Shown: in pieces, positions 19,801 to 63,985 of the stretch
How the letters are laid out: every line of letters begins with the position of its first letter
Numbering within the stretch: the stretch's first letter is position 1
Sequence record: MN655998.1
Length of the DNA: 64,000 nucleotides
Reading direction: 5' to 3' (one strand)
Source: Escherichia phage E26
Notes under the pieces: model-generated
Told to the model about the DNA's origin: nothing
Database searches by the model: none
What the model saw: only the letters and a program-made list of their open reading frames with translations
Translations under genes and position numbers: made by a program

Positions 19801-19836
19801 TTGATACTCCTTAGTAGTTCGTTTCGGTATGGGTGT

Positions 19837-19865
19837 ATTATGATATACACCCTCTGTTATGTCAA
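19837..19865 (-). promoter_or_regulatory. PeSL-like early promoter cassette 1
   Basis: Minus strand TTGACA-N17-CATAAT; palindrome GGGTGTAT..ATACACCC across the -10. Confidence 0.55.
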
Positions 19866-19871
19866 CAACTT

Positions 19872-20051
19872 TTAGAACATTTTTGAAATTAATTCTGCTT
19901 TGATTTCGCAGAGAACATCTAAAGATTTCTCGTCACCCGCTTTTGCTGCTTCTGATTGCATTTTTGAAATGGCTTCAACGTAAGTGCAATTATAAGCCGC
20001 TTGAACTTTAGCGATTGCGATGATTGCCGATTCGATGGTTAAGTGTTTCAT
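19872..20051 (-). CDS. small hypothetical protein (59 aa)
   Basis: Manual translation MKHLTIESAIIAIAKVQAAY...; SD GGAGAATCAA; not in ORF track. Confidence 0.4.
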   Translation of the reverse strand: MKHLTIESAIIAIAKVQAAYNCTYVEAISKMQSEAAKAGDEKSLDVLCEIKAELISKMF

Positions 20052-20083
20052 GTTTGATTCTCCTTTCGTTTCGGTATGTGTGC

Positions 20084-20112
20084 ATTATAGGGGATCACCG
20101 ATCCCCTGTCAA
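20084..20112 (-). promoter_or_regulatory. PeSL-like early promoter cassette 2
   Basis: TTGACA-GGGGATCGGTGATCCCC-TATAAT; perfect palindromic spacer with two GATC sites. Confidence 0.6.
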
Positions 20113-20676
20113 CAACTTTTTTGAATTATTTTTTAATTGCTCATCTTGTAATAGAGCAATAACATGCTGGCGATGTTCTTCCGATTGAGGCACACCGAAA
20201 AAGTTTGTTTTGTAGAAATATTCTAATCGATCTTCTCGTGTGCTCTCTTCCATCATGATCGCGGGTAGTCCGAGATTTCGGAAACGTCGCTTTTCTGCTG
20301 GCGTAAAATCACTGTAATACAACATAGAATCATCATTACCAGCAATGCTAAACTCATCTTTCATAAAGGAGAATATTGCGTTTAAACGCTGTTTACCGTC
20401 CACGATTTCGATCTCATAGCGAGAGCCATCATCAATCTTAGCCATTGCGATAGCACCAACCGGAAAATCATTAATCAGGTTTTCGATAAACATACGTTTG
20501 TTTTCGGTGTCCCATACCAAAGGACGCTGATAATCTGGGTTCATGTTGATATAGCCATCTTCTAACCACGCCTCATAAACAGAGATGACAAAGTTTTTAG
20601 TATTGGTATAGTAACGGCGTTTAGGCGTTAAACGGTTCATGTTATAGTCTCCTGAATGGATCATCACGTAAATCAA
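20095..20676 (-). CDS. DUF262 (ParB-like / GmrSD N-terminal domain) protein
   Basis: 193 aa; signature motifs PDYQRPLVW and VDGKQRLNAI. Confidence 0.7.
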   Translation of the reverse strand: MIYVMIHSGDYNMNRLTPKRRYYTNTKNFVISVYEAWLEDGYINMNPDYQRPLVWDTENKRMFIENLINDFPVGAIAMAKIDDGSRYEIEIVDGKQRLNAIFSFMKDEFSIAGNDDSMLYYSDFTPAEKRRFRNLGLPAIMMEESTREDRLEYFYKTNFFGVPQSEEHRQHVIALLQDEQLKNNSKKLLTGDR

Positions 20677-20971
20677 TATCTTTTAAGAACTCATCCCATG
20701 AATGGCGGATATTGTTCTTAATTCTCCAGATAAGCGCAGGGATTGAACGCTCTCCCATCTGGAAGTAAGGATCATATGATCCATATGCCCAATATGCTAC
20801 TACAATTCCACAATCAGCGCAATAATATTCTATTTCACTTGCTGGCGACCAAAGTCCATCAATATGATCGGTGATCCTGCTTTCGATGTTATGGCTATGG
20901 CAATCAGGGCAACGGATGCAATGACCTTGTTTATCGTAATTTGACGTTAGCGAATACTTAAACAATCTCAT
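20642..20971 (-). CDS. zinc-ribbon protein
   Basis: 109 aa; CIRCPDCHSH and CADCG Cys pairs; overlaps both neighbours. Confidence 0.5.
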   Translation of the reverse strand: MRLFKYSLTSNYDKQGHCIRCPDCHSHNIESRITDHIDGLWSPASEIEYYCADCGIVVAYWAYGSYDPYFQMGERSIPALIWRIKNNIRHSWDEFLKDIDLRDDPFRRL

Positions 20972-21687
20972 TATAGATCCTTATTTGCTTCAAATACTGC
21001 CTTTGCGAATCCTCGCGGGGTAAGTGACCTTATAGTCTTTGTTTTCGTTCCTTTCCCGCCTAGCTTAGAATGCTGTTTACTGTACCCTTTATTAATCTGC
21101 AACGGTTTCTTTTCTGGCATTATAAAGCCTTGTCCGGTCCATAAGCAAGTCCTTTTCGGGTACATATCACGGGCGGCAATATACTCAGGAAAAGTAGGAT
21201 GTTTATCATCTTCCGGCAAATAACCGCCATATTCCCACGGATGGAACATATAATCAGGCTTACGCCACATGCTAGAGATAACGCTTACAGGATTCTCTAT
21301 CATGTAGGGAACTCCTAGCCATTCACCCAAATAAGCGGTTATTTTAGCTGCCCGTACATCATGAACTTGAATCAATGGTCCTTGCTCTCGTTTCTTTCGT
21401 TCAAAGTGTGCAGCGCCACTAACAGCTAAATTGGTGCACGGTGGGAATGCAAATATAATATCCGGTTTCCCCCATTCAAGGTCCATTGCTCTTTCTAGCC
21501 AGTTCAAATCAATCCATGTGTTTACATATGTAATGTTTGGATGTTCAAATCGGGTATTATATTTTTTGTATGTACCGTGGTCGCCATCGTCAGCATTAAA
21601 GCAGATCACCTTATGACCTGCTTTAGCCCATTCTAACCCCATTATCCCCGATCCGTCAAAGTTGCAGAATATTAATTTTTGTTTCAC
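20971..21687 (-). CDS. minimal C5-cytosine methyltransferase-like protein
   Basis: 238 aa; motif I-like FDGSGIMGLE, motif IV-like FAFPPCTNLAVSGA, motif VI-like MIENPV, motif IX-like RSLTPRGFAKAV in correct order and spacing. Confidence 0.6.
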   Translation of the reverse strand: MKQKLIFCNFDGSGIMGLEWAKAGHKVICFNADDGDHGTYKKYNTRFEHPNITYVNTWIDLNWLERAMDLEWGKPDIIFAFPPCTNLAVSGAAHFERKKREQGPLIQVHDVRAAKITAYLGEWLGVPYMIENPVSVISSMWRKPDYMFHPWEYGGYLPEDDKHPTFPEYIAARDMYPKRTCLWTGQGFIMPEKKPLQINKGYSKQHSKLGGKGTKTKTIRSLTPRGFAKAVFEANKDL

Positions 21688-21935
21688 GCTGCCCCCATTG
21701 GTTTGATAGTAACAGAATCTAAAAGACCTTTGTTAGCCAGTTCGCGGCAAGTTTTCAGATCCGCAACTTCCCAGCCAGCCGCAATCAGGTTATCAATCAG
21801 GCTGTTAGCAATTTCTTCGCTCATGAAAGAGCACTGTTTGCCGATGGTGTAGCGTACACGCTGTAATTTCAGTTTACGGAAGCCTTTAACGTTCAGGTCT
21901 TTAGCGATTTTCTTTGCGGTTTCGATGTTAGCCAT
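21684..21935 (-). CDS. small hypothetical protein
   Basis: 83 aa; preceded by promoter cassette and SD. Confidence 0.55.
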   Translation of the reverse strand: MANIETAKKIAKDLNVKGFRKLKLQRVRYTIGKQCSFMSEEIANSLIDNLIAAGWEVADLKTCRELANKGLLDSVTIKPMGAA

Positions 21936-21975
21936 TGTTTGATTCTCCTAAGTGGTATCTCGTCTTGATGGTTGT

Positions 21976-22004
21976 ATTGTAGGGGAGTTATCCTCCCCTG
22001 TCAA
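21976..22004 (-). promoter_or_regulatory. PeSL-like early promoter cassette 3
   Basis: TTGACA-GGGGAGGATAACTCCCC-TACAAT; palindromic spacer. Confidence 0.55.
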
Positions 22005-22018
22005 CACTTTTTATAAAA

Positions 22019-22186
22019 TTATTTGTTAATTTCCGGTGCGTTGCTTGGATAGTAACCTTCTTTAACTCCGAGGTATTTCGCAACCATCCCTACAATCTTC
22101 TGTGCTACTACAATGTCAAATTTCAGATAATCTTCACCGTAGGTTTCAATGATATATGCTTCACATGCTGCTTTAGTCTCGAACAT
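22019..22186 (-). CDS. small hypothetical protein (55 aa), paralog of 25287..25454
   Basis: Manual translation MFETKAACEAYIIETYGEDYLKFDIVVAQKIVGMVAKYLGVKEGYYPSNAPEINK; not in ORF track. Confidence 0.5.
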   Translation of the reverse strand: MFETKAACEAYIIETYGEDYLKFDIVVAQKIVGMVAKYLGVKEGYYPSNAPEINK

Positions 22187-22219
22187 TTTGATTCTCCTAT
22201 TTCGTTTCGGTATGTGTGT

Positions 22220-22248
22220 ATTATAGGGGATCTCCCGATCCCCGTCAA
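22220..22248 (-). promoter_or_regulatory. PeSL-like early promoter cassette 4
   Basis: TTGACG-GGGATCGGGAGATCCCC-TATAAT; palindrome with GATC sites. Confidence 0.6.
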
Positions 22249-22263
22249 CAACTTTTTTTAAAA

Positions 22264-22545
22264 TTATTCGTGATTAGTTTCGATGTTGTGCATTTTGCAC
22301 CAGTTCAGCCAATCGCCCAGTTCTTGATAGTTGATGCTTTTATCTGCTGCCATCGTTTTTGTCTTGATACCCATATGTGCGTTATGAGTAAGCATTTTTA
22401 CAGTGAACTCGATTTTATCGCCTTTAGCTTTAACATCAACCAGTTTGGTCCACTGGCTACCAGCACCGCGAATGTTCATGCCAACGATGTTTCCGATGTA
22501 TGCTTCTTTGTTTTTCAGGATTTCGGTTGCTTTGATGAATTTCAT
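22264..22545 (-). CDS. small hypothetical protein
   Basis: 93 aa; promoter cassette and SD upstream. Confidence 0.55.
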   Translation of the reverse strand: MKFIKATEILKNKEAYIGNIVGMNIRGAGSQWTKLVDVKAKGDKIEFTVKMLTHNAHMGIKTKTMAADKSINYQELGDWLNWCKMHNIETNHE

Positions 22546-22578
22546 TTTTGATTCTCCAGTTCGTTTCGGTATGGGTGT

Positions 22579-22607
22579 ATTATGCTATGTTCTTACTTTG
22601 GTGTCAA
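22579..22607 (-). promoter_or_regulatory. PeSL-like early promoter cassette 5
   Basis: TTGACA-N17-CATAAT. Confidence 0.5.
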
Positions 22608-22615
22608 CAACTTTT

Positions 22616-22885
22616 TTAGATATTTTCAGAAATAAATTTTAAAACTTGACGTAAATGTTTCTCATCTTTGATAGTCGCCGGAAGTTCTTCTTTTACTTCC
22701 TGTGCAAGATAGATATTTCCGTTCCAAGTGAAAGATCCGTCTTCGTTTACGCGATAGCTGAACATCCACTCGCAATCATTTTCGATTTCATATACACACA
22801 GAAGAGTGTAATCTTCAAAGCTATTGAGTTCAAGGTCGAAGCCGTGACGTTTTGCAAAGTTGGTAGTGGTTTTAGTCAGTGCCAT
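22616..22885 (-). CDS. small hypothetical protein
   Basis: 89 aa; promoter cassette and SD upstream. Confidence 0.55.
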   Translation of the reverse strand: MALTKTTTNFAKRHGFDLELNSFEDYTLLCVYEIENDCEWMFSYRVNEDGSFTWNGNIYLAQEVKEELPATIKDEKHLRQVLKFISENI

Positions 22886-22925
22886 TGTTTGATTCTCCTA
22901 AGTGGTATCTCGTTTCGATGTGTGT

Positions 22926-22954
22926 ATTATGCTATAGGCGTGTTCTGGTGTCAA
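22926..22954 (-). promoter_or_regulatory. PeSL-like early promoter cassette 6
   Basis: TTGACA-N17-CATAAT. Confidence 0.5.
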
Positions 22955-22978
22955 TTCTTTTTTTAAAATTTTATGCAA

Positions 22979-23004
22979 TAAAAAAGCCGACGCTAAGGTC
23001 GGCT
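22979..23004 (-). terminator. Rho-independent terminator (minus strand)
   Basis: AGCCGAC-GCTAAG-GTCGGCT hairpin; U-run on minus strand. Confidence 0.55.
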
Positions 23005-23011
23005 AATAAAA

Positions 23012-23320
23012 TCATTTAGACAAATAATCATTCTGTGCAATCCGGTCAGCATGTTCCGGCGTTACGTCAATTGCAATCACTTTAACGCGTGCTTTCTTGC
23101 GACCTGGGTTTTCTCGTAGCCAGTGCGTGTGACCGTACAAATTTTTATACTTTGATGCTTCTTCGAAGGTACGGATCGGACCTGGGTAATCAGCGTAAAG
23201 GATCTCTAGATCTTCGGTGATGTAAAAATATACATCGTAATTGCTGTTCTCTAGCTTAAGCAGAGACTTTCGGAACATTGGGAGATTTTCGCGGGTAAAT
23301 TCAAAGATATTATCTTTCAT
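23012..23320 (-). CDS. HxHW-AVDV family protein, copy A
   Basis: 102 aa from internal Met MKDNIFEF; motifs VYFYITEDL, HTHW, IAIDV; track N-terminus reads through the terminator hairpin. Confidence 0.55.
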   Translation of the reverse strand: MKDNIFEFTRENLPMFRKSLLKLENSNYDVYFYITEDLEILYADYPGPIRTFEEASKYKNLYGHTHWLRENPGRKKARVKVIAIDVTPEHADRIAQNDYLSK

Positions 23321-23343
23321 AGTATTATCCTCAATAGTTGGAT

Positions 23344-23366
23344 GAAAAGGGGGGCTTAACGCCCCC
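23344..23366 (-). terminator. Rho-independent terminator (minus strand)
   Basis: GGGGGGC-TTAAC-GCCCCC hairpin. Confidence 0.5.
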
Positions 23367-23371
23367 ATATA

Positions 23372-23659
23372 TTAAAACAGTCCTTCCTGTACACCGTAAT
23401 AGAGTTCGTCGCTGATAATTTCATTAATGCGACGGTGTGCATATTCCTGATTTGCGAAGTTGTCAGCAAGTTCTACTTTAGTTTCTCCGTCATGAGTCCA
23501 TTTAGTGATAACTTTACCATCTGCAAATTTGAAGTTGAACTCTTTAGCTACCGCATCGCGTACCAGACGTGCAAACTTATTGTTGCGGATTGCATTGTCG
23601 GTTTCGTGTGCAGCGTGAGCGAATTTGTTAACTTTCAGAGTGATAGTAATGTATGCCAT
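23372..23659 (-). CDS. small hypothetical protein (AKEFN motif)
   Basis: 95 aa; shares AKEFN-containing segment with ORF 26672..26983. Confidence 0.55.
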   Translation of the reverse strand: MAYITITLKVNKFAHAAHETDNAIRNNKFARLVRDAVAKEFNFKFADGKVITKWTHDGETKVELADNFANQEYAHRRINEIISDELYYGVQEGLF

Positions 23660-23705
23660 AATTTGATTCTCCTAGTTAGAAAGTGTATCTCGTTTCGATG
23701 GGTGT

Positions 23706-23734
23706 ATTATGCTATACACCCGACCTTATGTCAA
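23706..23734 (-). promoter_or_regulatory. PeSL-like early promoter cassette 7
   Basis: TTGACA-N17-CATAAT; palindrome GGGTGTAT..ATACACCC across -10. Confidence 0.55.
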
Positions 23735-23740
23735 CACTTT

Positions 23741-24019
23741 TTATAAAATAATTTTTTGATATTTTTCTATGATGTTCGTGTAAGTCACATCAACCGCTAG
23801 CACCGTTGCTTCGAATCCACCGTTTAGCCAATGGCTATGGTCATGATCGTGAAAGAAACCAAGACCAGTACGAAGACCTTCTTTATATTCTGCGCGTACA
23901 TTTAGATCATCATCGATAAACAGATAAAACCATGAATTTTTACTAGGATTGATGATACAACCTTTCAGATTAGGGAGAATATCACGACTAAGAATAAACT
24001 TATCACCTACTTTGAACAT
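23741..24019 (-). CDS. HxHW-AVDV family protein, copy B
   Basis: 92 aa from internal Met MFKVGDKF (SD GAGGA); motifs WFYLFIDDDL, HDHDHSHW, LAVDV. Confidence 0.55.
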   Translation of the reverse strand: MFKVGDKFILSRDILPNLKGCIINPSKNSWFYLFIDDDLNVRAEYKEGLRTGLGFFHDHDHSHWLNGGFEATVLAVDVTYTNIIEKYQKIIL

Positions 24020-24033
24020 AATATTTTCCTCAC

Positions 24034-24342: not shown

Positions 24343-24343
24343 T

Positions 24344-25030: not shown

Positions 25031-25042
25031 AATATATTCCTC

Positions 25043-25222
25043 TTAGAAAGGGATGGTCATTTCTTGAGCTTGTACATTCTCGTTAGGATTAAACTTCATC
25101 CAACCGATATTGTCTACCAGCATATGTACATTTTTATCATACCCTACGTGAGTAGTCAACACTAAATGTGCTTTACCTTCAACGATGATTTCCATGTACT
25201 TCTGAACTTCGATAGCTTTCAT
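25043..25222 (-). CDS. small hypothetical protein (59 aa)
   Basis: Manual translation MKAIEVQKYMEIIVEGKAHLV...; SD GGAGAATCAA; not in ORF track. Confidence 0.4.
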   Translation of the reverse strand: MKAIEVQKYMEIIVEGKAHLVLTTHVGYDKNVHMLVDNIGWMKFNPNENVQAQEMTIPF

Positions 25223-25254
25223 TTTGATTCTCCGTTTGTTGTCTTGATGGGAGT

Positions 25255-25283
25255 ATCTTACTACTCCCTTTAATCATTGTCAA
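25255..25283 (-). promoter_or_regulatory. PeSL-like early promoter cassette 8
   Basis: TTGACA-N17-TAAGAT; palindrome GGGAGTA..TACTCCC across -10. Confidence 0.5.
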
Positions 25284-25286
25284 CTA

Positions 25287-25454
25287 TTATTTGTTAATTT
25301 CCGGTGCGTTGCTTGGATAGTAACCTTCTTTAACACCCAGATATTTTGCAACCATTCCGGTGATCTTCTGTGCTACTACGATATCGAATTTCAGGTAGTC
25401 TTCACCGTGGGTTGCTACAATGTATGCTTCGCATTCTGCTTTAGTCTGGAACAT
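25287..25454 (-). CDS. small hypothetical protein (55 aa), paralog of 22019..22186
   Basis: Manual translation MFQTKAECEAYIVATHGEDYLKFDIVVAQKITGMVAKYLGVKEGYYPSNAPEINK; not in ORF track. Confidence 0.5.
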   Translation of the reverse strand: MFQTKAECEAYIVATHGEDYLKFDIVVAQKITGMVAKYLGVKEGYYPSNAPEINK

Positions 25455-25488
25455 TTTTGATTCTCCTATATCTCGTTGGTATGTGTGT

Positions 25489-25518
25489 ATTATAGGGGAT
25501 CTCCCGATCCCCTGTCAA
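25489..25518 (-). promoter_or_regulatory. PeSL-like early promoter cassette 9
   Basis: TTGACA-GGGGATCGGGAGATCCCC-TATAAT (18-nt palindromic spacer with GATC sites). Confidence 0.6.
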
Positions 25519-25526
25519 CAACTTTT

Positions 25527-25835
25527 TTATTCTTCATCTTCATTTTTATCTTTATATGCGTACTTCATAAATTTGTCTGCTACTTTGTCCGCGTTTTCAG
25601 GTTCTACGTCTGACGCTAGGACAACAGCTAGTTCGGTTTTGTCGTTTCCATCATACCAATGATTATGAGTGTCGTTTTCTTTGATATAAAACGAATCATT
25701 TGGAGTTGTGCGACAATATACGTCTAAATTCCCATCGATATAAAAGATCCAATCCGAATACAAAATGATTGTTTTAGCCAGATTTTTATTGTCTCTTACA
25801 AAAGGTTCCGCGACAAATAGCTTAGTTTGTTCCAT
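25527..25835 (-). CDS. HxHW-AVDV family protein, copy E
   Basis: 102 aa from internal Met MEQTKLFV (SD GAGGAAA); motifs IFYIDGNL, THNHW, LAVVLASDV. Confidence 0.55.
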   Translation of the reverse strand: MEQTKLFVAEPFVRDNKNLAKTIILYSDWIFYIDGNLDVYCRTTPNDSFYIKENDTHNHWYDGNDKTELAVVLASDVEPENADKVADKFMKYAYKDKNEDEE

Positions 25836-25851
25836 AGTAATTTCCTCAAAA

Positions 25852-26402: not shown

Positions 26403-26419
26403 TTAGTCACCTCTCTTTA

Positions 26420-26599
26420 TTACATAACAATCACGCCAGCCGTTGAAAGTTGATGTTTCAACTGAGCATTTTCTGCTACCGTCAAATCAATGATTTCTTG
26501 TGACGCTGCAATCATATAGCCATTGGTGATATTGTTTTGCATCAGTTCAATGGTTTCTTCGTTGTAGCGGATTTTAGCGATGATTTCGTTGAAGTTCAT
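26420..26599 (-). CDS. small hypothetical protein (59 aa)
   Basis: Manual translation MNFNEIIAKIRYNEETIELMQNN...; not in ORF track. Confidence 0.4.
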   Translation of the reverse strand: MNFNEIIAKIRYNEETIELMQNNITNGYMIAASQEIIDLTVAENAQLKHQLSTAGVIVM

Positions 26600-26633
26600 A
26601 ATTGATTCTCCTAGTTCGTTTCGGTATGTGTGT

Positions 26634-26663
26634 ATTATAGGGGAGTTTAGCCTCCCCTGTCAA
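26634..26663 (-). promoter_or_regulatory. PeSL-like early promoter cassette 10
   Basis: TTGACA-GGGGAGGCTAAACTCCCC-TATAAT; palindromic spacer. Confidence 0.55.
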
Positions 26664-26671
26664 CAACTTTT

Positions 26672-26983
26672 TTAAAGTTTTTCCATGATAACGGTCATAA
26701 TTACATCTTCTGCGCGAGCGGTCAGATTATCAGCGTCAGCATGTGGGCGGTTGGTTGTTACAGAGATAACACCGTTGCGCACTGGTTTGATATTGATATC
26801 AAGATGATCCGCGAAACGTTCGCCAGTTACAGAATGAATTTTGGTGTTAAATTCTTTTGCCAGTGCCTTGCGAACTTCACGAATCAGGATAGCGTTTTTC
26901 AGTTGGTTCTCCGCGCTCATGGTCTTCTGGGTGTTCATGGTTCCGTCGAAGTCAATCATTGGCAGCGTTACGATGTATTTCAT
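26672..26983 (-). CDS. small hypothetical protein (AKEFN motif)
   Basis: 103 aa; paralogous segment with 23372..23659. Confidence 0.55.
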   Translation of the reverse strand: MKYIVTLPMIDFDGTMNTQKTMSAENQLKNAILIREVRKALAKEFNTKIHSVTGERFADHLDINIKPVRNGVISVTTNRPHADADNLTARAEDVIMTVIMEKL

Positions 26984-27028
26984 TTTTGATTCTCCGTTTA
27001 AGAAAGTGTGTTTCGTTTTGATGTGTGT

Positions 27029-27057
27029 AGTATAGGGGATCGGTGATCCCCTGTCAA
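27029..27057 (-). promoter_or_regulatory. PeSL-like early promoter cassette 11
   Basis: TTGACA-GGGGATCACCGATCCCC-TATACT. Confidence 0.55.
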
Positions 27058-27070
27058 CAACTTTTTTGAA

Positions 27071-27415
27071 TTATTTTTTCATGAGCTTAATTGCTTCTTC
27101 CATAGCCAACACATTTCGATAGTTAGGGTATCGTGTTAGATCGTCATACATTCGCTTAAGGGTGGAAACTTCCTCAAACTCTGGGTTTTCTAGATACAGT
27201 TGAACAAATTGTTTCTCTATCATCTCTGCTTTTAGCTTGTCTGCTTGTTCCTGTTCATATGATTTAGTTGGACCCAACACCAACAAAATGATAAAGGTGA
27301 TCAACGGGCTAATGATCAACGATAGGATAACATAACCGATAACGCTACGGTTTAAACGGCTTGCATACATGCCTACCAGGAAAACAAAAAGGATATAGAT
27401 AAACAGAAAGAACAT
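27071..27415 (-). CDS. membrane protein
   Basis: 114 aa; two N-terminal transmembrane helices. Confidence 0.5.
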   Translation of the reverse strand: MFFLFIYILFVFLVGMYASRLNRSVIGYVILSLIISPLITFIILLVLGPTKSYEQEQADKLKAEMIEKQFVQLYLENPEFEEVSTLKRMYDDLTRYPNYRNVLAMEEAIKLMKK

Positions 27416-35417: not shown

Positions 35418-35816
35418 TTAACTTTCCAGAATATCGCGAGCTTCGTTACGCTCCTTGATGATTTTCAGGACAAATTCCAGTTTTTCTTTGTTCAGCGTTC
35501 CATTTTCCATTGCTTCTTTGACGGTAAACACTCCGCCACCTTGCCCGTATACAGTGACAGTGATTTCACCTAACATCGTGGTATGAAAACCGCCAATTTT
35601 CGGTGATTCGAAAGAAACAATTACCTCGCGGACAGTATTACCGTCGTTGATTTCTGAGAGGGTAATGTCGTTTTTGTAGGCGGTTGCTTTAACCATACGG
35701 ATCAGCATAGTCTGATCTGGGGAGATGGTCATTTTGTCCATTGCATGTTGCAATGCAGCGTAACCGAAAACTTTAACGAAGTCCAGAACGTCTTTGCGAG
35801 TTTGAAATTTAATCAT
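35418..35816 (-). CDS. hypothetical protein
   Basis: ORF track 132 aa; promoter cassette upstream. Confidence 0.5.
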   Translation of the reverse strand: MIKFQTRKDVLDFVKVFGYAALQHAMDKMTISPDQTMLIRMVKATAYKNDITLSEINDGNTVREVIVSFESPKIGGFHTTMLGEITVTVYGQGGGVFTVKEAMENGTLNKEKLEFVLKIIKERNEARDILES

Positions 35817-35849
35817 CTTGATACTCCTTAGTTGTTTTGGTATGGGAGT

Positions 35850-35878
35850 ATCTTACTACTCCCGTGATATGCTGTCAA
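35850..35878 (-). promoter_or_regulatory. PeSL-like early promoter cassette 12
   Basis: TTGACA-N17-TAAGAT; palindrome GGGAGTA..TACTCCC. Confidence 0.5.
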
Positions 35879-35886
35879 CTGCTTTT

Positions 35887-36036
35887 TTATGCAACCGCAA
35901 ACATCAACATTTGAACATTCTTGGCTGTCTGGCTTTCAAAGTTCTGACATTCTTTGATAATGTCCTCTACTTTCTCGCCGGAGATCTCCGCGTAAGTTTC
36001 GATTGCCATTTTCAGTACCGCGTCAAAGTTGTTCAT
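35887..36036 (-). CDS. small hypothetical protein (49 aa)
   Basis: Manual translation MNNFDAVLKMAIETYAEISGEKVEDIIKECQNF...; not in ORF track. Confidence 0.4.
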   Translation of the reverse strand: MNNFDAVLKMAIETYAEISGEKVEDIIKECQNFESQTAKNVQMLMFAVA

Positions 36037-36074
36037 TTGATTCTCCTTAAAGTGTATTTCGTTTCGATGGGGGT

Positions 36075-36103
36075 ATATTACTACCCCCGTTATTCAGTGT
36101 CAA
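36075..36103 (-). promoter_or_regulatory. PeSL-like early promoter cassette 13
   Basis: TTGACA-N17-TAATAT; palindrome GGGGGTA..TACCCCC. Confidence 0.5.
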
Positions 36104-36322
36104 CTACTTTTTAATGACAAGTTCGAATTTTGCTACCTTGCGTCCTCGTTTATTGAAAGCAACCCACGGACGGTTTTCAATGTAGAACAATTCTTCGCCA
36201 ATAATGAATACTGGCTGATTGTAAAGGCGACCCATCAGGTCACGCTGGCGAATGGTAGTAGATTCGTATACTTCTCCTACTACAAAGTGCTTGCTGATAG
36301 AGTCGGTGCAAGTAAATTTCAT
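36104..36322 (-). CDS. small hypothetical protein (72 aa from internal Met MKFTCTD)
   Basis: Track N-terminal extension is read-through of the promoter cassette leader. Confidence 0.45.
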   Translation of the reverse strand: MKFTCTDSISKHFVVGEVYESTTIRQRDLMGRLYNQPVFIIGEELFYIENRPWVAFNKRGRKVAKFELVIKK

Positions 36323-36353
36323 TTTGATTCTCCTTTGTTTTCTTGATGGGAGT

Positions 36354-36382
36354 ATTATGCAATACCCCCTAATGTGTGTCAA
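36354..36382 (-). promoter_or_regulatory. PeSL-like early promoter cassette 14
   Basis: TTGACA-N17-CATAAT. Confidence 0.5.
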
Positions 36383-36546
36383 CTGCCTTTTTGAAAGTTT
36401 TCTGCTTTTCTTAGGTGAAATTTCGAGGAATAAAATTTAAAGTCTTCCTCTTTCACGATACTAATTGACGTTGCAAGGTTTTCGTCCCAATGGTTGATGA
36501 TATAGAGATTTCCTTCCGCTCTAAAATACCAACGTTGTGCTTTCAT
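36379..36546 (-). CDS. small hypothetical protein (about 55 aa)
   Basis: Manual translation MKAQRWYFRAEGNLYIINHWDENL...; SD AAGAGGTG; 3' end overlaps promoter cassette; low confidence. Confidence 0.3.
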   Translation of the reverse strand: MKAQRWYFRAEGNLYIINHWDENLATSISIVKEEDFKFYSSKFHLRKAENFQKGS

Positions 36547-36555: not shown

Positions 36556-36723
36556 TTAGCTAAACCAGATTTTACCATCGTTAGATACTTCGCAGATCAG
36601 GCGATTGCGCCATGTGCAGAAGTAAACACGTCCGAATTTACCTTCACCTGCATCGTGCTCGAAAGTAACGCCTTTGTTTTTCTTAGCCATGTTGCAAGCC
36701 TGACGATAAGTTAAAGTTTTCAT
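36556..36723 (-). CDS. small hypothetical protein (55 aa)
   Basis: Manual translation MKTLTYRQACNMAKKNKGVTFEHDAGEGKFGRVYFCTWRN...; not in ORF track. Confidence 0.4.
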   Translation of the reverse strand: MKTLTYRQACNMAKKNKGVTFEHDAGEGKFGRVYFCTWRNRLICEVSNDGKIWFS

Positions 36724-36756
36724 TTGATTCTCCTTAAAGTGTGTTTCGATGGGTGC

Positions 36757-36785
36757 ATTATGCTATACCCCGATCCGATTGTCAA
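36757..36785 (-). promoter_or_regulatory. PeSL-like early promoter cassette 15
   Basis: TTGACA-N17-CATAAT; GATC in spacer. Confidence 0.5.
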
Positions 36786-36832
36786 CACCCAATAACAAAA
36801 AAGTCGCCACTATGGGCGACTTTGAACAAACA

Positions 36833-38822: not shown

Positions 38823-38989
38823 TATCCGACAACCTCAAAACATTTATCATCAGGAAGAATAGCCCATTCTACGCCGTATTCATCCTTAACGTAGTAGCAA
38901 GTCCCATCATGTCGAGCATCATATTCATCACCGACAACAAAGCTATCAGCTAGCTCAAAATCTACCGCAACACATTTTAATTTTGCCAT
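38822..38989 (-). CDS. small hypothetical protein (55 aa from internal Met MAKLKCVAVDF)
   Basis: Track start 39052 lies inside the promoter cassette; internal ATG has SD GAGGA. Confidence 0.45.
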   Translation of the reverse strand: MAKLKCVAVDFELADSFVVGDEYDARHDGTCYYVKDEYGVEWAILPDDKCFEVVG

Positions 38990-39020
38990 AATAAAATCCT
39001 CATTTGTTTTTGATGGTTGA

Positions 39021-39049
39021 ATTATAGCGGGGATTTCTCCCCGCGTCAA
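39021..39049 (-). promoter_or_regulatory. PeSL-like early promoter cassette 16
   Basis: TTGACG-CGGGGAGAAATCCCCGC-TATAAT; palindromic spacer. Confidence 0.6.
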
Positions 39050-39057
39050 CACTTATT

Positions 39058-43806: not shown

Positions 43807-44132
43807 ATCAGTTTAAAGAAGTTTTCGTTTACATTTTCTTCGGTGATTGCTGTCTTAAATTCTTGACCGTTATCCGGTGTGATGAAATAACGGTCAGAAT
43901 AATCACGAAAACGTTTTAAGTGAGATAACCCAACATTAACACCATTTTCCCAAAAACGAAAGGTAATCATTTTTGGTTCATATCGATAGTCGCTGGTTAA
44001 CACAGTACCATCACCGCGACGGGCTTCATAAACCGTAATACATTCACGATTAGCGGCTTTAAGGCATTCTTCAATAGTGCCACACGAGATAATACTTACT
44101 TTTTCATCTACGATTTGCTCTACAGTCCACAT
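43803..44132 (-). CDS. hypothetical protein
   Basis: ORF track 109 aa. Confidence 0.5.
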   Translation of the reverse strand: MWTVEQIVDEKVSIISCGTIEECLKAANRECITVYEARRGDGTVLTSDYRYEPKMITFRFWENGVNVGLSHLKRFRDYSDRYFITPDNGQEFKTAITEENVNENFFKLI

Positions 44133-44162
44133 AATATAATCCTCTCTTCGTTTCGATGTTTG

Positions 44163-44191
44163 TATTATACATCATCTGTGTTCGGCGTCAA
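44163..44191 (-). promoter_or_regulatory. PeSL-like early promoter cassette 17
   Basis: TTGACG-N16/17-TATAAT. Confidence 0.5.
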
Positions 44192-44517
44192 CCTTTTTGT
44201 TCCATGAAAAGCGGTGCTGTTTCTTCTTTCAGTTTAATAACTAGCGCGGAAACTTCATCAAGAAAATCTTTTTCCATATGAGCAAGCATTGATTTAGAAT
44301 CTTTGATGACTTTCAAAGAATATTCACTTAGATTTCCGTTTCCTAACAATAATGCAGGATACACACTATGTGGGATCTCGATTTCATGATATTCGCTCAT
44401 AGTATAATATTTGTGAATTTTTAAATCTATATTTCTTCGTTGTACGTCCACATCAGCAATGACATACAGAAGTTCGATTTTATCGCTTTTCTGGGAAAGG
44501 GTAGCATTCAAAAACAT
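44188..44517 (-). CDS. hypothetical protein
   Basis: ORF track 109 aa. Confidence 0.5.
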   Translation of the reverse strand: MFLNATLSQKSDKIELLYVIADVDVQRRNIDLKIHKYYTMSEYHEIEIPHSVYPALLLGNGNLSEYSLKVIKDSKSMLAHMEKDFLDEVSALVIKLKEETAPLFMEQKG

Positions 44518-44546
44518 TGTTAATCCTCCATTGTTTCGATGTGTGC

Positions 44547-44574
44547 ATTATACATTACCACATAAGCATGTCAA
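44547..44574 (-). promoter_or_regulatory. PeSL-like early promoter cassette 18
   Basis: TTGACA-N16-TATAAT. Confidence 0.5.
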
Positions 44575-44599
44575 CATCTTTTCATAAATTTTTAGGCAA

Positions 44600-44626
44600 T
44601 AAAAAAGCCTCCCCGAAGGAAGGCTT
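44600..44626 (-). terminator. Rho-independent terminator (minus strand) after gene 32
   Basis: Minus-strand RNA GCCUUCC-UUCG-GGGAGGC followed by UUUUUU. Confidence 0.6.
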
Positions 44627-44635
44627 TAAAATTCA

Positions 44636-61833: not shown

Positions 61834-62634
61834 TTAACCCTTCTTATATTCGCAAACATATTGAGTACCATAATCATAGCTAATGCGACCTTTCTCGATG
61901 ACTTCAAAGCGGATTTCATCGTTTTCCCCTACCCACATTTTGTACTCGTTGAAGTATCCTGCTACATCCGGTTTGCTCATACCAACAACCATATTTTTAT
62001 ATTGTTTGCTGCGTGTCAGATTTGATTTAAACACTTCGCGCTCATCAACATATACGAAAGAAGACAATTCACCTTCGGTCATGGTCATTTTCAGCTTGCC
62101 GCCCTTGTTGCCATAAGTAGAGTTGCCATACAATGGATCTTTGCGGCTGTCTGTTTCAATACCATCAATGATTTTCCATGTAAATTTTGCAATGCACTGA
62201 TAAGTGATAGATCCAGAGATTTTCTCTTCTTTCTTCTGTTCTTCCACCACTTTTTCTTCCTGTTTCGGTTGTTCTTCGTCAACCTTCACAGAAGTCTCTG
62301 AATCGCTTTCTGATGCGGTTTCTTCTTTAGGTAATACATTCATCAAGTTTTGGATTTGAGCGTTATATACAGCCTCCAGTGGCTGGATCTGCCCGATATT
62401 GATCATTGTATCACGAACAGTTTTATTCCAGTTGCGTTGCTCTTGTTTAAGAGACGGATCAATCTTAACAGCCTTAACATACACTTCATGAAGTTTAGAA
62501 TCCAGTGCGGAGATTGACTCATTAGCACAAATAAACTTCTCTGATTTGGTAGTAGCTTTAGCGCAATCGAAGGAAGCAGCATTAGCACCGAAAGCAGTAG
62601 CAGAAAGAACGATAGCAGCGATAATGTTTTTCAT
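61834..62634 (-). CDS. secreted DUF1311/LprI-like protein
   Basis: 266 aa; signal peptide MKNIIAAIVLSATAFGANA; FDCAKATTKSEKFICANESISALDSKLHEVY...QRNW pattern typical of DUF1311. Confidence 0.55.
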   Translation of the reverse strand: MKNIIAAIVLSATAFGANAASFDCAKATTKSEKFICANESISALDSKLHEVYVKAVKIDPSLKQEQRNWNKTVRDTMINIGQIQPLEAVYNAQIQNLMNVLPKEETASESDSETSVKVDEEQPKQEEKVVEEQKKEEKISGSITYQCIAKFTWKIIDGIETDSRKDPLYGNSTYGNKGGKLKMTMTEGELSSFVYVDEREVFKSNLTRSKQYKNMVVGMSKPDVAGYFNEYKMWVGENDEIRFEVIEKGRISYDYGTQYVCEYKKG

Positions 62635-62667
62635 AATATATTCCTCAATGTTTTTCTTGATGGGAGT

Positions 62668-62696
62668 ATCTTACTACTCCCTTAATCCGGTGTCAA
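62668..62696 (-). promoter_or_regulatory. PeSL-like early promoter cassette 19
   Basis: TTGACA-N17-TAAGAT; palindrome GGGAGTA..TACTCCC. Confidence 0.5.
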
Positions 62697-62703
62697 CTAC
62701 TTT

Positions 62704-62859
62704 TTAAATTTCTTCTACAGTAAAGTCTTCAATGTTGTTGTGCTCGGAGAACGTTGCTAGACCAGCATCCCATGCATCATCCTCAGAGAAGAATACACCG
62801 TAACGTTCATATCCTTTAGCGCCTTCAAATTTAACCATTAATTTGTGAGTATGTTTCAT
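62704..62859 (-). CDS. small hypothetical protein (51 aa from internal Met MKHTHKLM)
   Basis: Track N-terminus is read-through of the promoter cassette leader. Confidence 0.4.
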   Translation of the reverse strand: MKHTHKLMVKFEGAKGYERYGVFFSEDDAWDAGLATFSEHNNIEDFTVEEI

Positions 62860-62890
62860 TTTGATTCTCCTTCGTTGTCTTGATGAGTTT

Positions 62891-62919
62891 AGTATAGGGG
62901 ATCGCCGATCCCCTGTCAA
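62891..62919 (-). promoter_or_regulatory. PeSL-like early promoter cassette 20
   Basis: TTGACA-GGGGATCGGCGATCCCC-TATACT. Confidence 0.55.
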
Positions 62920-62931
62920 CTATTTTTTAAA

Positions 62932-63192
62932 TTATTTTCGCCATTCACCGGAAACAATGAAGTTTGTAAAGTGATTGTGGTCCGTGATAATGTCATTAAG
63001 TACCATATGCGGATATGCTTTAGTGTAATCACGTTTACGATCAGTCATCCAGCCAACGAAAGTCGGTGCAAAGTACGGCACACCGTCAGACGATGCCATA
63101 TTAAACCCTTTATCAACCATAAATGCAGCCGCCCGAAGATTTTTAATTGAAGTAGTGCGACTAATTTCAAAAACTTTATCGGTAAAATTCAT
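62932..63192 (-). CDS. hypothetical protein
   Basis: ORF track 86 aa. Confidence 0.45.
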   Translation of the reverse strand: MNFTDKVFEISRTTSIKNLRAAAFMVDKGFNMASSDGVPYFAPTFVGWMTDRKRDYTKAYPHMVLNDIITDHNHFTNFIVSGEWRK

Positions 63193-63404
63193 TTTAAGCC
63201 CCCCGCTCGTGCATTAATACGCATTTTCTGCATAGCCATAATCTGGCGTACTGCTTCTTCTTTGCGTTCTTGTGTGATAACGTGACCAGATTCCGCAAAC
63301 TCTCCAGCGACCTCTTCCACGATCTCGCGAACTTGAGAACGTCCAAAGATGCGGTTTCCTTCGTAGCTCATAAATTCAGTCACTACTTGCTCAATAGATT
63401 TCAT
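63189..63404 (-). CDS. hypothetical protein
   Basis: ORF track 71 aa; SD GGAGAATCAC. Confidence 0.5.
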   Translation of the reverse strand: MKSIEQVVTEFMSYEGNRIFGRSQVREIVEEVAGEFAESGHVITQERKEEAVRQIMAMQKMRINARAGGLK

Positions 63405-63433
63405 GTGATTCTCCTTTCGTCTGGTATGGGAGT

Positions 63434-63462
63434 ATATTACTACTCCCGTTTCTTTACGTCAA
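63434..63462 (-). promoter_or_regulatory. PeSL-like early promoter cassette 21
   Basis: TTGACG-N17-TAATAT; palindrome GGGAGTA..TACTCCC. Confidence 0.5.
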
Positions 63463-63469
63463 CTGGTTT

Positions 63470-63712
63470 TTAGAAATTTTTCGCTTCTTCTTCGGTCATC
63501 ATAACCGCGCATTCGTGCATAACTTTGAAAACCGGATCAATCATGTCGAATGCTTCGCGAGACAGTTTACGAGAAGCGATTTTGATTGCTTCAACGTCTT
63601 CTACTACAGGAACAAAAACAGTTTTCAGTTCATCGAGCACGGCAGCTTCTTTTTCATTCAGGAAGATTCCAGCGTCGTACAGTGCAACTTCGATAACATT
63701 AACTTTAACCAT
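63470..63712 (-). CDS. hypothetical protein (start at internal Met MVKVNVIEV)
   Basis: Track N-terminal extension overlaps the promoter cassette. Confidence 0.45.
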   Translation of the reverse strand: MVKVNVIEVALYDAGIFLNEKEAAVLDELKTVFVPVVEDVEAIKIASRKLSREAFDMIDPVFKVMHECAVMMTEEEAKNF

Positions 63713-63746
63713 TTTTATTTCCTCCAGTTCGCTTCGGTATGTTAGT

Positions 63747-63775
63747 ATAATACTACCGATGACCTTTGGTGTCAA
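63747..63775 (-). promoter_or_regulatory. PeSL-like early promoter cassette 22
   Basis: TTGACA-N17-TATTAT. Confidence 0.45.
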
Positions 63776-63985
63776 CTAGTTTTTGTTATTTTCGTGAAAA
63801 TTTTTCGTCTCCTCTAGGTTCTTTTCGACCTTCATCCATTCCGCGTATTCTTGCGCGGCTACTTTCGGATTTAGTCCGTCTTCGTACATTGCTTCAAGTA
63901 ATTCTTCGTCGGTGGGCTTATACCCTAGATAAGCCTCCACCTGATTTTTCCAAATTTTATACCAGTTCATATTATCACCAATCAA
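63776..63985 (-). CDS. small hypothetical protein
   Basis: ORF track 69 aa; its upstream region runs off the window. Confidence 0.4.
   Translation of the reverse strand: MIGDNMNWYKIWKNQVEAYLGYKPTDEELLEAMYEDGLNPKVAAQEYAEWMKVEKNLEETKNFHENNKN

Follow-up and report, generated by a model that had tools for sequence, protein, structure and literature searches.

Repeated promoter-hairpin cassettes in Escherichia phage E26 and their relation to the PeSL elements of RB49-group phages

PeSL elements of RB49-like phages and the E26 locus

Promoter-early stem-loop (PeSL) elements were originally defined in the hyperplastic region of phage RB49 that comprises ORF185-211 (Arbiol et al. 2010, PMC2839356). 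In RB49 and phi1 they consist of an AT-rich tract, TTGACA-N17-TATAAT, a Gn-loop-Cn stem at several promoter-relative positions, a Shine-Dalgarno sequence and an ATG; they occupy hyperplastic regions, stand upstream of ORFans and are associated with indels (PMC2839356; PMC4122927). PeSL206/205 tested as a strong promoter (∼13,000 Miller units), and the stem-loop of PeSL211/210 lowered lacZ expression to roughly the same extent as rrnB T1 (PMC2839356).

The architecture, the placement and the association with indels recur in the repeated cassettes of Escherichia phage E26. The window, that is, the whole 64,000-nt stretch of MN655998.1 that was analysed, comes from a Krischvirus, an RB49-like coliphage, with RB49, phi1 and Delraymugoa at about 96-97% identity. 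Genome comparison showed that the block at 19.8-27.1 kb is collinear with ORF185-211 of RB49 and phi1. The cassette with its −35 hexamer at 27057 is 96% identical to PeSL211/210 and the one at 25518 is 94% identical to PeSL206/205, and both are orthologues. Promoter activity, terminator activity and mini-circles have all been demonstrated by others for orthologous copies. Because the locus is the ORF185-211 region and two window copies are orthologous to tested PeSLs, we take the cassettes to be PeSL elements of RB49-group T4-like phages. An earlier note on this DNA had proposed the same match, and the Krischvirus genome, the collinear locus and the breakpoint association described below bear it out. 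Within the phage collection, the PeSL-type family was found in Krischvirus-type records only (59/61 records). The PeSL nature of such cassettes has been published before, and E26 is one more isolate at the locus of the first description; the identification is correct, not new.

Sequence and hairpins of the 22 cassettes

The pattern TTGACR-N15-19-YAWRAT had 29 matches in the window, where shuffles gave an expectation of 2.0, and 27 of these matches were on the minus strand. The window was also searched with a profile HMM made from 16 copies. The search recovered exactly 22 copies (E ≤ 1.2e-8), all on the minus strand between 19780 and 63795, and the best non-cassette hit had E = 0.8. The cassettes are ∼100 nt long and co-oriented with their genes. 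Eleven lie at 19.8-27.1 kb, four at 35.8-36.8 kb, one at 39.0 kb, two at 44.2-44.6 kb and four at 62.7-63.8 kb. The earlier note, which had proposed aligning and modelling the copies, counted at least 22 and listed these same clusters. Its statement that almost all small ORFs at 19.8-27.1 kb are bracketed by them was, however, too strong, since 11 cassettes stand there for about 24 ORFs and the remaining ORFs lie in short operons.

Each cassette runs from an A-rich upstream tract through TTGAC(A/G), a 16-18 nt spacer, a −10 hexamer and an A/C-rich leader to the Shine-Dalgarno sequence and ATG. The −35 hexamer is TTGACA in 18 copies and TTGACG in 4, and a 17 nt spacer prevails (18 copies), with 18 nt and 16 nt in two copies each. 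The −10 hexamers are TATAAT (7), CATAAT (6), TAAGAT (3), TATACT (2), TAATAT (2), TACAAT (1) and TATTAT (1). Three copies have the exact leader ACACATACCGAAACGAA, and 9 minus-strand copies match it with no more than 3 mismatches; the consensus across the family is ACaCcCAT(ac)CgAAAC. The Shine-Dalgarno sequence GGAGAATCAAA occurs exactly in 13 cassettes and nowhere else in the window, where 0.67 occurrences were expected.

A perfect 7-9 bp G/C-rich stem was found in 16/22 copies, lying in the spacer in eight (class A) and across the −10 and discriminator in the other eight (class B). In what follows, the coordinates of each cassette are followed in brackets by the position of its −35 hexamer and the ORF that it is predicted to drive; all are on the minus strand. 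The class A cassettes are 20038..20133 (20112; GGGGATC-GGT-GATCCCC with TATAAT; ORF 19872-20051), 21917..22024 (22004; GGGGAG-GATAA-CTCCCC with TACAAT, MFE −15.7, z −3.4; ORF 21684-21935), 22168..22270 (22248; GGGATC-GGGA-GATCCC; the ORF191-like ORF 22019-22186), 25437..25531 (25518; GGGGATC-GGGA-GATCCCC; ORF 25287-25454), 26578..26690 (26663; GGGGAG-GCTAAA-CTCCCC; ORF 26420-26599), 26968..27076 (27057; GGGGATC-ACC-GATCCCC with TATACT; ORF 26672-26983), 38970..39072 (39049; CGGGGA-GAAA-TCCCCG, z −4.3; ORF 38822-38989) and 62846..62943 (62919; GGGGATC-GGC-GATCCCC; ORF 62704-62859).

The class B cassettes are 19780..19888 (19865; stem GGGTGTAT/ATACACCC with a CATAAT −10 in the loop, MFE −12.7, z −3.0; ORF 19588-19800), 23647..23752 (23734; GGGTGTAT/ATACACCC, MFE −13.9, z −3.3; ORF 23372-23659), 25205..25303 (25283; GGGAGTA-GTAAGA-TACTCCC; ORF 25043-25222), 35798..35900 (35878; GGGAGTA/TACTCCC; ORF 35418-35816), 36019..36127 (36103; GGGGGTA/TACCCCC; a small ORF ending near 35890), 36302..36405 (36382; a 9-bp stem with a G.U pair; ORF 36104-36322), 62615..62719 (62696; GGGAGTA/TACTCCC; ORF 61834-62634) and 63390..63483 (63462; GGGAGTA/TACTCCC; ORF 63189-63404).

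The embedded stem is absent from 6/22 copies. In three of these, a canonical terminator precedes the −35 hexamer by 20-25 nt: 22869..23004 (22954; AGCCGACCTTAGCGTCGGCT plus T6 at 23004-22985; ORF 22616-22885), 36709..36832 (36785; GTCGCCCATAGTGGCGAC plus T6, and a weak embedded stem; an ORF between 36391 and 36743) and 44513..44635 (44574; AAGCCTTCCTTCGGGGAGGCTT plus T6; ORF 44188-44517). The other three, PeSL-family cassettes without a hairpin, are 22525..22635 (22607; CATAAT, MFE −0.5; ORF 22264-22545), 44120..44210 (44191; 16 nt spacer, no strong hairpin; ORF 43803-44132) and 63692..63795 (63775; the weakest match, E 1.2e-8, with no real hairpin; ORF 63470-63712). Orthologues of the 36785 copy also lack the embedded stem; individual sites can thus do without one.

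The embedded hairpin is under selection. RNA folding gave MFE values of −11.9 to −16.3 kcal/mol (z −1.8 to −4.3) for 15/20 folded copies, and among eight genomes 65/74 distinct stem-bearing cores have perfect stems. Pairing in the class B alignment amounts to 95.7%, and three pairs are altered on both sides; the pairing and covariation scores were reached by 0/500 shuffles, and each slid register scored worse. Arm sequences vary yet pair (GGGGATC, GGGGAG, CGGGGA, GGGTGTAT, GGGAGTA, GGGGGTA and GGGGATAT). Transition-type stem mismatches on the sense strand were G.T seven times and A.C never, a pattern expected for an RNA helix. A consensus terminator scan of the sense strand called 0 of the 16 embedded hairpins. 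They have no U-tract; class A stems are followed by UAUAAU and class B stems by AUACC or AUCAAG.

Judged from its sequence, each cassette would be a compact intergenic unit in which a strong host sigma-70 early promoter (A-rich UP-like tract, consensus −35, 17-nt spacer, −10) is fused to a short, apparently unstructured A/C-rich leader and a strong ribosome-binding site, serving a small, usually orphan, early gene. In most copies a G/C-rich hairpin lies within the promoter or just upstream. Since it is upstream of the cassette's own presumed start site, only transcripts running on from the preceding gene would contain and fold it; there it may attenuate or terminate the read-through and so insulate each small gene. 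Terminator activity has been measured for one class A stem-loop only, in a plasmid reporter, and the class B hairpins presumably act at the RNA level too.

Genome breakpoints and alternative readings

Comparison of the window with seven relatives yielded 30 non-redundant indel or replacement events, and ends no more than 25 nt away from a cassette were scored as cassette ends. At least one end lay at a cassette in 20/30 events against 17% expected (binomial p = 2e-9; p = 5e-7 after alleles were collapsed). The earlier note had staked its proposal on such a gene-content comparison, and cassettes are indeed strongly associated with breakpoints. Part of this association is expected of any intergenic site: 16/21 cassette-bearing and 4/14 cassette-free intergenic regions contained a breakpoint, giving only p = 0.013 (Fisher) with crude gene calls. 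The 10/30 events without a cassette comprised homing endonucleases, intragenic changes and indels internal to operons.

Individual sites are as follows. At the 22248 copy, ORF192 is inserted in RB49 and a 367-bp ORF in JSE. In RB49 and JK32, ORF195/196 is flanked by a duplication of the 97-bp core of the 22954 copy. A 746-bp deletion in JK32 has its left end at the 26663 copy, and the 36103 copy has a 94-bp shared overlap at a JSE/JK32 deletion. The ORF driven by the 36785 copy is replaced in six relatives. At the 39049 copy, Delraymugoa carries an inserted 853-bp C5-methyltransferase gene, with 42 bp of the cassette duplicated on its flanks. ORF 44188-44517 is deleted in JSE, with a 0.8-1.6 kb replacement in five other relatives, and the 62919 copy is the left end of a 268-bp segment found in the window only.

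Seven junctions have a shared overlap of 36-97 bp. Hybrid cassettes occur in JK32 and JSE, and their crossovers lie in the −10/leader; the JK32 hybrid is a mix of the 20112 and 19865 copies. These overlaps and hybrids point to homologous recombination. A complete cassette-plus-ORF module also occurs twice in the window (22018-22275 and 25286-25544); the duplication starts and stops a short way upstream of −35 hexamers. As the cassettes are near-identical, same-orientation repeats of ∼100 nt between genes, phage homologous recombination would be expected to cross over between copies; such crossovers may delete, duplicate, insert or swap promoter-plus-ORF modules while expression is undisturbed. 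The recombination pathway itself is put forward as a probable one. Sequence anatomy, stem covariation, breakpoint association, hybrid junctions and the duplicated module form the basis from our own analysis. We regard the whole explanation, PeSL promoter, read-through hairpin and homology-driven module exchange, as very probable.

It is unlikely that the cassettes are ordinary early promoters, alike by descent and sigma-70 consensus selection, with incidental palindromes and indel ends that are merely intergenic. The stems missing from six copies and lost in some orthologues, the events that used no cassette and the modest enrichment under the intergenic-only null would suit that view, but the stems fold much more stably than shuffled sequences do (z as low as −4.3) and are mostly perfect, with compensatory changes, and shared cassette sequence and hybrids at junctions are a signature of repeat recombination, not of random breaks.

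The palindromes could also be DNA sites of a dimeric phage protein, either an early-promoter repressor or a recombination or structure-specific protein that mobilises cassettes in an integron-like manner. A protein site for the GGGG...CCCC motif was a speculation in the discussion of Arbiol et al. (PMC2839356). The conserved G4/C4 ends of class A stems, the operator-like position over the spacer or −10, and the reverse-complementary loops GGT/ACC that swap between orthologous copies, as would fit a DNA hairpin or cruciform, are in keeping with it. A sequence-specific protein would fix the sequence, whereas at least seven arm sequences are tolerated if they pair; the G.T bias points to RNA, crossovers are scattered over the AT-rich tract, −10 and leader rather than at one stem point, as fits homology-driven exchange, and no recombinase is evident in the window. 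We consider such a site very unlikely.

The earlier note's suggestion that paired GATC sites make initiation Dam-methylation-sensitive is scarcely credible: the phage encodes a putative DNA methyltransferase (PHROG 757) and 5/22 copies have GGGGATC-N3-4-GATCCCC between −35 and −10, but GATC density stays at background both across the window (361 sites, 339 expected) and in the cassettes (11 in 2263 bp, about the 5.6 per kb of the background), pairing is automatic because GATC is self-complementary and one palindrome arm implies the other, GATC is missing from the stems of every class B copy and of the remaining class A copies, relatives' orthologues drop one GATC and keep the stem (GGGGGTC...GATCCCC or GGGGAT-CACGT-ATCCCC), and a Pfam search of ORF189 gave no Dam-type (D12) match.

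Comparison with known systems

The PeSL elements of RB49 and phi1 show no essential difference from the E26 cassettes, except that the window has its own set of cassette-flanked ORFs and other loop sequences. Its topology is phi1-like, without ORF192/195/196; it also has an ORF211 homologue, and extra ORFs at 36.4-36.7, 44.2-44.5, 62.9-63.2 and 63.5-63.8 kb. The PeSL-like/PmSL elements of T4/PST and KVP40/nt-1 (Comeau et al. 2014, PMC4122927) are likewise composite promoter-terminator repeats that lie in hyperplastic regions and mark where genes are exchanged. Their promoter consensuses (TTTACW..TAYWAT; TTGYVH..TAWWAT) are different, however, and their stems are richer in AT, so that they count as analogues, not homologues, of the E26 cassettes.

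The G/C-rich 7-9 bp stem, the 3-6 nt loop and the position at the end of the preceding gene are shared with intrinsic (Rho-independent) terminators. Three cassettes carry a genuine one with a T6 tract, while the 16 embedded hairpins differ in having no U-tract and in being passed over by the consensus scan. Like integron cassettes and phage 'morons', the modules are small orphan genes with their own expression signals, gathered in arrays. Unlike integrons, they have no integrase or attC-type site, and exchange is apparently homology-driven within the repeated promoter; unlike in morons, the regulatory sequence is the exchange vehicle.

The T4 RegB/S1 cleavage site is GGAGRAYARAA (Durand et al. 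2006, PMC1702504). GGAGAATCAAA resembles it at 10/11 positions and sits in the single-stranded A-rich translation-initiation region of early mRNAs, but has C at position 8, where the consensus strongly prefers A. RB49 RegB is active, and GGAGAATCAAA is a candidate RegB/S1-like site. This likeness and the one complete cassette-plus-ORF duplication are minor additions to the known PeSLs.

Promoter anatomy and distribution of the cassettes

Megablast searches with 19000-28000 and 29501-54500 of the window matched about 60 Krischvirus genomes (RB49, phi1, JSE, Delraymugoa and others) at 93-97% identity, and the window is therefore from another RB49-group T4-type coliphage. According to the gene order in Delraymugoa, RB49 and phi1, 19.6-27.4 kb corresponds to RB49 ORF185-211, a block flanked by alt and by HNH endonuclease/DNA ligase genes. 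The cassettes are minus-strand units of about 100 nt, named here by the position of their -35. A profile HMM trained on 16 copies and run on both strands returned exactly 22 matches (E 1e-21 to 1.2e-8), all 22 on the minus strand, the next match having E = 0.8; count, strand and positions agreed with the earlier note. The pattern TTGACR-N15-19-YAWRAT occurred 29 times in the window, 27 of them on the minus strand, against 2.0 expected.

Besides the copies at 19.6-27.4 kb, minus-strand clusters were located at 35.8-36.8 kb (corresponding to ORF225-229), 39.0 kb (ORF233/nrdA), 44.2-44.6 kb (ORF239/240/gene 32) and 62.7-63.8 kb (ORF262-266). All cassettes lay within early-gene blocks, co-oriented with the early genes, and the profile HMM found none on either strand of the late tail or tail-fibre blocks of the window. 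The ORFs downstream were mostly hypothetical. The earlier note overstated the density in saying that cassettes bracket nearly every small ORF: there were 11 cassettes for about 24 ORFs at 19.6-27.4 kb, where many ORFs belong to operons of two to five genes.

When the copies were aligned on the -35, the hexamer was TTGACA in 18 of the 22 and TTGACG in four, and the spacer measured 17 nt in 18 copies, 18 nt in two and 16 nt in two. The -10 was TATAAT (7 copies), CATAAT (6), TAAGAT (3), TATACT (2), TAATAT (2), TACAAT (1) or TATTAT (1), and every copy kept at least four of six consensus matches including A2 and T6, which is the near-consensus sigma-70 promoter of promoter-early stem-loop elements (PeSLs) of RB49-group phages. 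The 30 nt 5′ of the -35 were 74% A+T and 47% A with the consensus aaaaatTttaAAAAAgttG, corresponding to the AT-rich upstream region of PeSLs, and the A-tract (AAAAAgttG) directly adjoined the -35. Stop codons were visible in the cassette alignments. The leader had the consensus ACaCcCAT(ac)CgAAAC; the 17-mer leader of the earlier note was exact in three copies and recognizable with at most three mismatches in nine minus-strand copies. GGAG, GAGG or GGA stood 5-11 nt 5′ of the ATG in all 22 cassettes, as do the Shine-Dalgarno (SD) sequence and start codon of PeSLs. No Rfam family was found in the whole window at gathering thresholds.

The 11-mer GGAGAATCAAA was present as an exact match at 13 minus-strand sites (for example 20053-20063, 22187-22197, 36323-36333 and 62860-62870), all in cassettes and none elsewhere in the 64 kb, with 0.67 expected. 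Compared with the consensus of T4 RegB/S1 targets, GGAGRAYARAA (PMC1702504), it matches 10 of 11 positions, the exception being C at position 8. RB49 has an active, divergent RegB (PMC3014915); RegB is not mentioned in the paper that described PeSLs (PMC2839356). From the likeness to the consensus and the presence of RegB in RB49, the cassette may also program the inactivation of its own early mRNA via this candidate RegB site. An equally simple reading is that GGAGAATCAAA is an optimal A-rich ribosome-binding region.

Three consensus sigma-70 promoters lay outside the 22-copy family on the minus strand, at 4013-3986, 3442-3415 and 45668-45641, and were devoid of the conserved leader. One of the three has a terminator-like GGGGTGGCTTTTTT upstream, and the promoter at 45668 is the counterpart of the 'early RB49 promoter' annotated 5′ of RB49 gene 32.

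Hairpin classes and GATC sites

The stem-loop took one of several positions. Class A (8 of 22 copies) has a 7-8 bp stem filling the spacer, as in GGGGATC-N3-4-GATCCCC, GGGGAG-N5-6-CTCCCC and CGGGGA-GAAA-TCCCCG. In class B, also eight copies, a 7-9 bp stem encloses the -10 in its loop, the last part of the spacer forming the 5′ arm and the discriminator the 3′ arm (GGGTGTAT/ATACACCC, GGGAGTA/TACTCCC, GGGGGTA/TACCCCC). Copies 22954, 36785 and 44574 lacked a good embedded stem; their -35 was preceded at a distance of 20-25 nt by a canonical terminator ending in a T6 tract, at 23004-22985, about 36832-36810 and about 44635-44610. In the remaining three (22607, 44191, 63775) a hairpin was absent. 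Of the positions known for PeSL stem-loops, those represented were the spacer (8), the -10/discriminator (8) and the region upstream of the -35 (3), with three copies having none.

RNA folding of 20 copies gave 15 with a minimum free energy of -11.9 to -16.3 kcal/mol (z -1.8 to -4.3), and the stem-less copies folded no differently from shuffles. The 16 embedded hairpins had no U-tract, and the consensus scan of the sense strand called none of them an intrinsic terminator. The three upstream hairpins do have the G/C-rich stem and immediate U-tract of an intrinsic terminator. Antisense terminators as a general cassette property were rejected, as the plus-strand scan called only a single hairpin, at 19831-19852. 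A terminator-like hairpin, GGGGGCGTTAAGCCCCC followed by Ts, was found outside the cassettes in identical form at 19566-19582 and 23350-23366 of the minus strand.

Conservation of the stems was analyzed in 170 cassette matches from the window and seven relatives, which reduced to 109 distinct cores, a core running from the -35 through 12 nt beyond the -10. Perfect stems were found in 65 of the 74 cores having at least 6 Watson-Crick pairs. In the subgroup with TAAGAT or TAATAT as -10, 95.7% of cells were paired and changes on both sides occurred at three of seven pairs, one position being A-U, G-C or G-U, for example; neither the pairing nor the covariation score observed was reached in any of 500 shuffles, and all slid registers were much worse. 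The CATAAT subgroup was heterogeneous and only 63% paired in one common register, because about half of its members lack a stem, so cassettes commonly have a stem but can do without one. Transition-type stem mismatches on the sense strand were seven G.T and no A.C. Such an asymmetry would be predicted for a helix with a role in the minus-strand RNA, and the sense-strand G.U bias argues for a role of the stem at the RNA level, but the seven represent perhaps four independent events and are only suggestive.

Transcription would start 6-8 nt past the -10, which would leave the two arms of a class A or class B stem entirely 5′ of +1. Such a hairpin would then form only in read-through RNA from the preceding gene, which fits a putative attenuator or insulator role. 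The sole experimental test of an embedded stem used a lacZ reporter and concerned PeSL211/210, whose stem-loop is of class A (PMC2839356).

The earlier note had also proposed that paired GATC (Dam) sites make initiation methylation-sensitive, and this was rejected on window counts, cassettes and orthologues alike. GATC occurred 361 times in the window against 339 expected from a Markov model (ratio 1.06), and the 11 sites in 2263 bp of cassettes are the background density. Pairs of GATC were restricted to 5 of 22 copies, located in the spacer and not in a hexamer, and a palindrome arm containing the self-complementary GATC necessarily yields two. Orthologous sites in relatives read GGGGGTC...GATCCCC or GGGGAT-CACGT-ATCCCC, so that one GATC was lost where the helix was kept. 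Dam-regulated promoters of the IS10 pIN and pap type, in contrast, have a conserved, non-randomly placed GATC in a critical promoter element. ORF189 of the window (20971-21687) is a putative methyltransferase whose only match was PHROG 757 'DNA methyltransferase', with no Pfam match and no relative of solved structure in the PDB. GGCC, with 23 occurrences against 69 predicted from trinucleotide counts (ratio 0.33), is strongly under-represented in the window.

Breakpoints between related genomes

The window was aligned with about 50 kb of seven relatives (Delraymugoa, RB49, phi1, ELT4, G2248, JSE and JK32), and the HSPs were chained with a 160-bp overlap tolerance, since at junctions the cassettes, being repeats, can overlap by as much as 97 bp. 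The early-gene blocks showed 30 non-redundant indel or replacement events. The earlier note had expected cassettes to coincide with gene-content breakpoints, and they did: 20 of the 30 events ended within 25 nt of a cassette on one side or both, 15 of them on both, although cassettes with a 25-nt margin make up only 8.9% of the sequence and chance would bring about 17% of events into contact with one (p = 2e-9, or 5e-7 with the five alleles at 44.2-44.5 kb collapsed). Among intergenic regions of at least 40 bp, a breakpoint was found in 16 of 21 having a cassette versus 4 of 14 without (Fisher p = 0.013). The association of PeSLs with indels and replacements between close relatives therefore also holds for these cassettes. 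The ten cassette-free events were homing-endonuclease gain or loss, within-gene divergence and within-operon indels.

At seven junctions, 36-97 bp of sequence was common to both flanks. Read from the alignments, this shared overlap is the footprint of direct-repeat exchange. JK32 is without the ORF186 homologue and JSE without the ORF at 44188-44517, and both deletions left a hybrid cassette, with A-tract, -35 and spacer from the upstream copy, leader, SD and ORF from the downstream copy, and the crossover point within the shared -10/leader. Insertions at cassettes in relatives comprised RB49 ORF192 and ORF195/196 and one JSE ORF. In Delraymugoa the orthologue of the 39049 cassette is the exact insertion site of a C5 cytosine methyltransferase gene (PF00145; 38653-39492), which is flanked by 42 bp of duplicated cassette; the gene is absent in the window, RB49 and phi1. 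A whole module, from the promoter with its hairpin through the leader and a 55-codon ORF to the stop, is duplicated in the window at 22018-22275 and 25286-25544. The two are ORF191-like and ORF205-like paralogues of PHROG 8009, 87% identical over 172 nt in the ORF part, and their homology starts just 5′ of their own -35 and stops just 5′ of the -35 of the next cassette.

Several other differences from the relatives were observed. A 100-aa DUF4326 ORF at 41313-41650, between td and nrdA, is missing in 7/7 relatives compared; 5′ of this ORF lie the hairpin GGCGGGGAGAAATCCCCGCC, whose stem is identical to that of cassette 39049, and an SD of the cassette type (AGGAGTATCAAATG), and the ORF has no promoter. 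Two window segments, 30434-31075 (640 bp) and 45674-46246 (571 bp), are each missing in six of seven relatives with no cassette involved, and their counterparts in ELT4 carry HNH and homing endonuclease annotations. A stretch of 264-282 bp present in 6/6 relatives covering the gp34 tail-fibre gene (49269-52703) is missing from the window at 51246-51287; the 24-42 bp of overlap shared at the junction suggest that the proximal tail-fibre subunit underwent a repeat-mediated deletion that kept the reading frame. The distal tail-fibre region at 55767-58572 is replaced or divergent relative to G2248, ELT4, JK32 and JSE, which is the usual host-range variability.

Arbiol et al. proposed that recombination between PeSLs shuffles ORFan modules and yields mini-circles (PMC2839356). 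A more active process can be imagined, in which extruded DNA hairpins or cruciforms are bound by a structure-specific phage protein that mobilises mini-circles in the manner of an integron, with GGAGAATCAAA acting as a RegB/S1 off-switch after the early phase. If true, this would amount to integron-like gene capture in a lytic phage, but we consider it improbable. Integron cassettes depend on a tyrosine-recombinase integrase and on folded attC sites with conserved extrahelical bases. No integrase is annotated across the region in Delraymugoa, RB49 and phi1, and, unlike recombination at integron attC sites, the crossovers at cassettes are scattered along the homology. Passive homologous recombination is favoured over active, protein-driven mobilisation.

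Comparison with published PeSLs

About 52 PeSLs per genome were described in phi1 and RB49 (Arbiol et al. 2010, PMC2839356). The published element combines a sigma-70 consensus promoter and the AT-rich sequence upstream of it with a polyG/polyC stem-loop and an SD with ATG, the stem-loop having five alternative positions (5′ of the -35, across the -35, within the spacer, across the -10, or 3′ of the -10); PeSLs are concentrated in hyperplastic regions 5′ of ORFans (PMC2839356). Promoter and terminator activity and mini-circle formation have been published for the orthologous PeSL206/205, 193/192 and 211/210 (PMC2839356), and the idea was later extended to T4/PST and KVP40/nt-1 (Comeau et al. 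2014, PMC4122927).

Window cassette 27057 is 96% identical to RB49 PeSL211/210 and cassette 25518 is 94% identical to PeSL206/205, making them orthologues of two of the three experimentally tested PeSLs. The differences are mainly in the hairpin loops (27038-27048 and 25498-25509), where GGT alternates with its reverse complement ACC, a pattern consistent with inversion of the loop within the palindrome or with conversion between copies. In the GEC-3S RefSeq record the orthologue of the 20112 copy already bears a promoter annotation that includes -35 and -10 signals, and in the RB49 record an early promoter is marked upstream of gene 32. In the phage collection, 59 of the 61 records containing the cassette sequence were Krischvirus-type genomes, with 6-11 blastn places of this subtype per genome. 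A weak match to the 96-nt cassette query (77% over 88 nt, E = 3e-7) at 10283-10370 of Pseudoalteromonas phage PH357, an unrelated marine phage, may be a chance promoter similarity.

Given the orthology to tested PeSLs, the existing promoter annotations and the confinement to Krischvirus, naming these elements PeSLs, as the earlier note did, was the correct recognition of a known element whose orthologous copies have been experimentally characterised. The window thus adds no new kind of element; it adds an independent replication in the form of seven more genome comparisons, hybrid junctions and a duplicated module. In annotation the sites are best labelled as early promoter/attenuator cassettes and not as novel repeats. 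Few concrete sequence mechanisms have been put forward for the Botstein-type modular evolution of large lytic phages, and PeSLs are one of them, accounting for gain, loss and swap of small orphan genes with expression signals kept. Like the PeSLs of RB49 and phi1, the window cassettes are intergenic, lie in hyperplastic regions 5′ of ORFans and are co-oriented with early genes, and they share every sequence-level feature by which those elements are defined.
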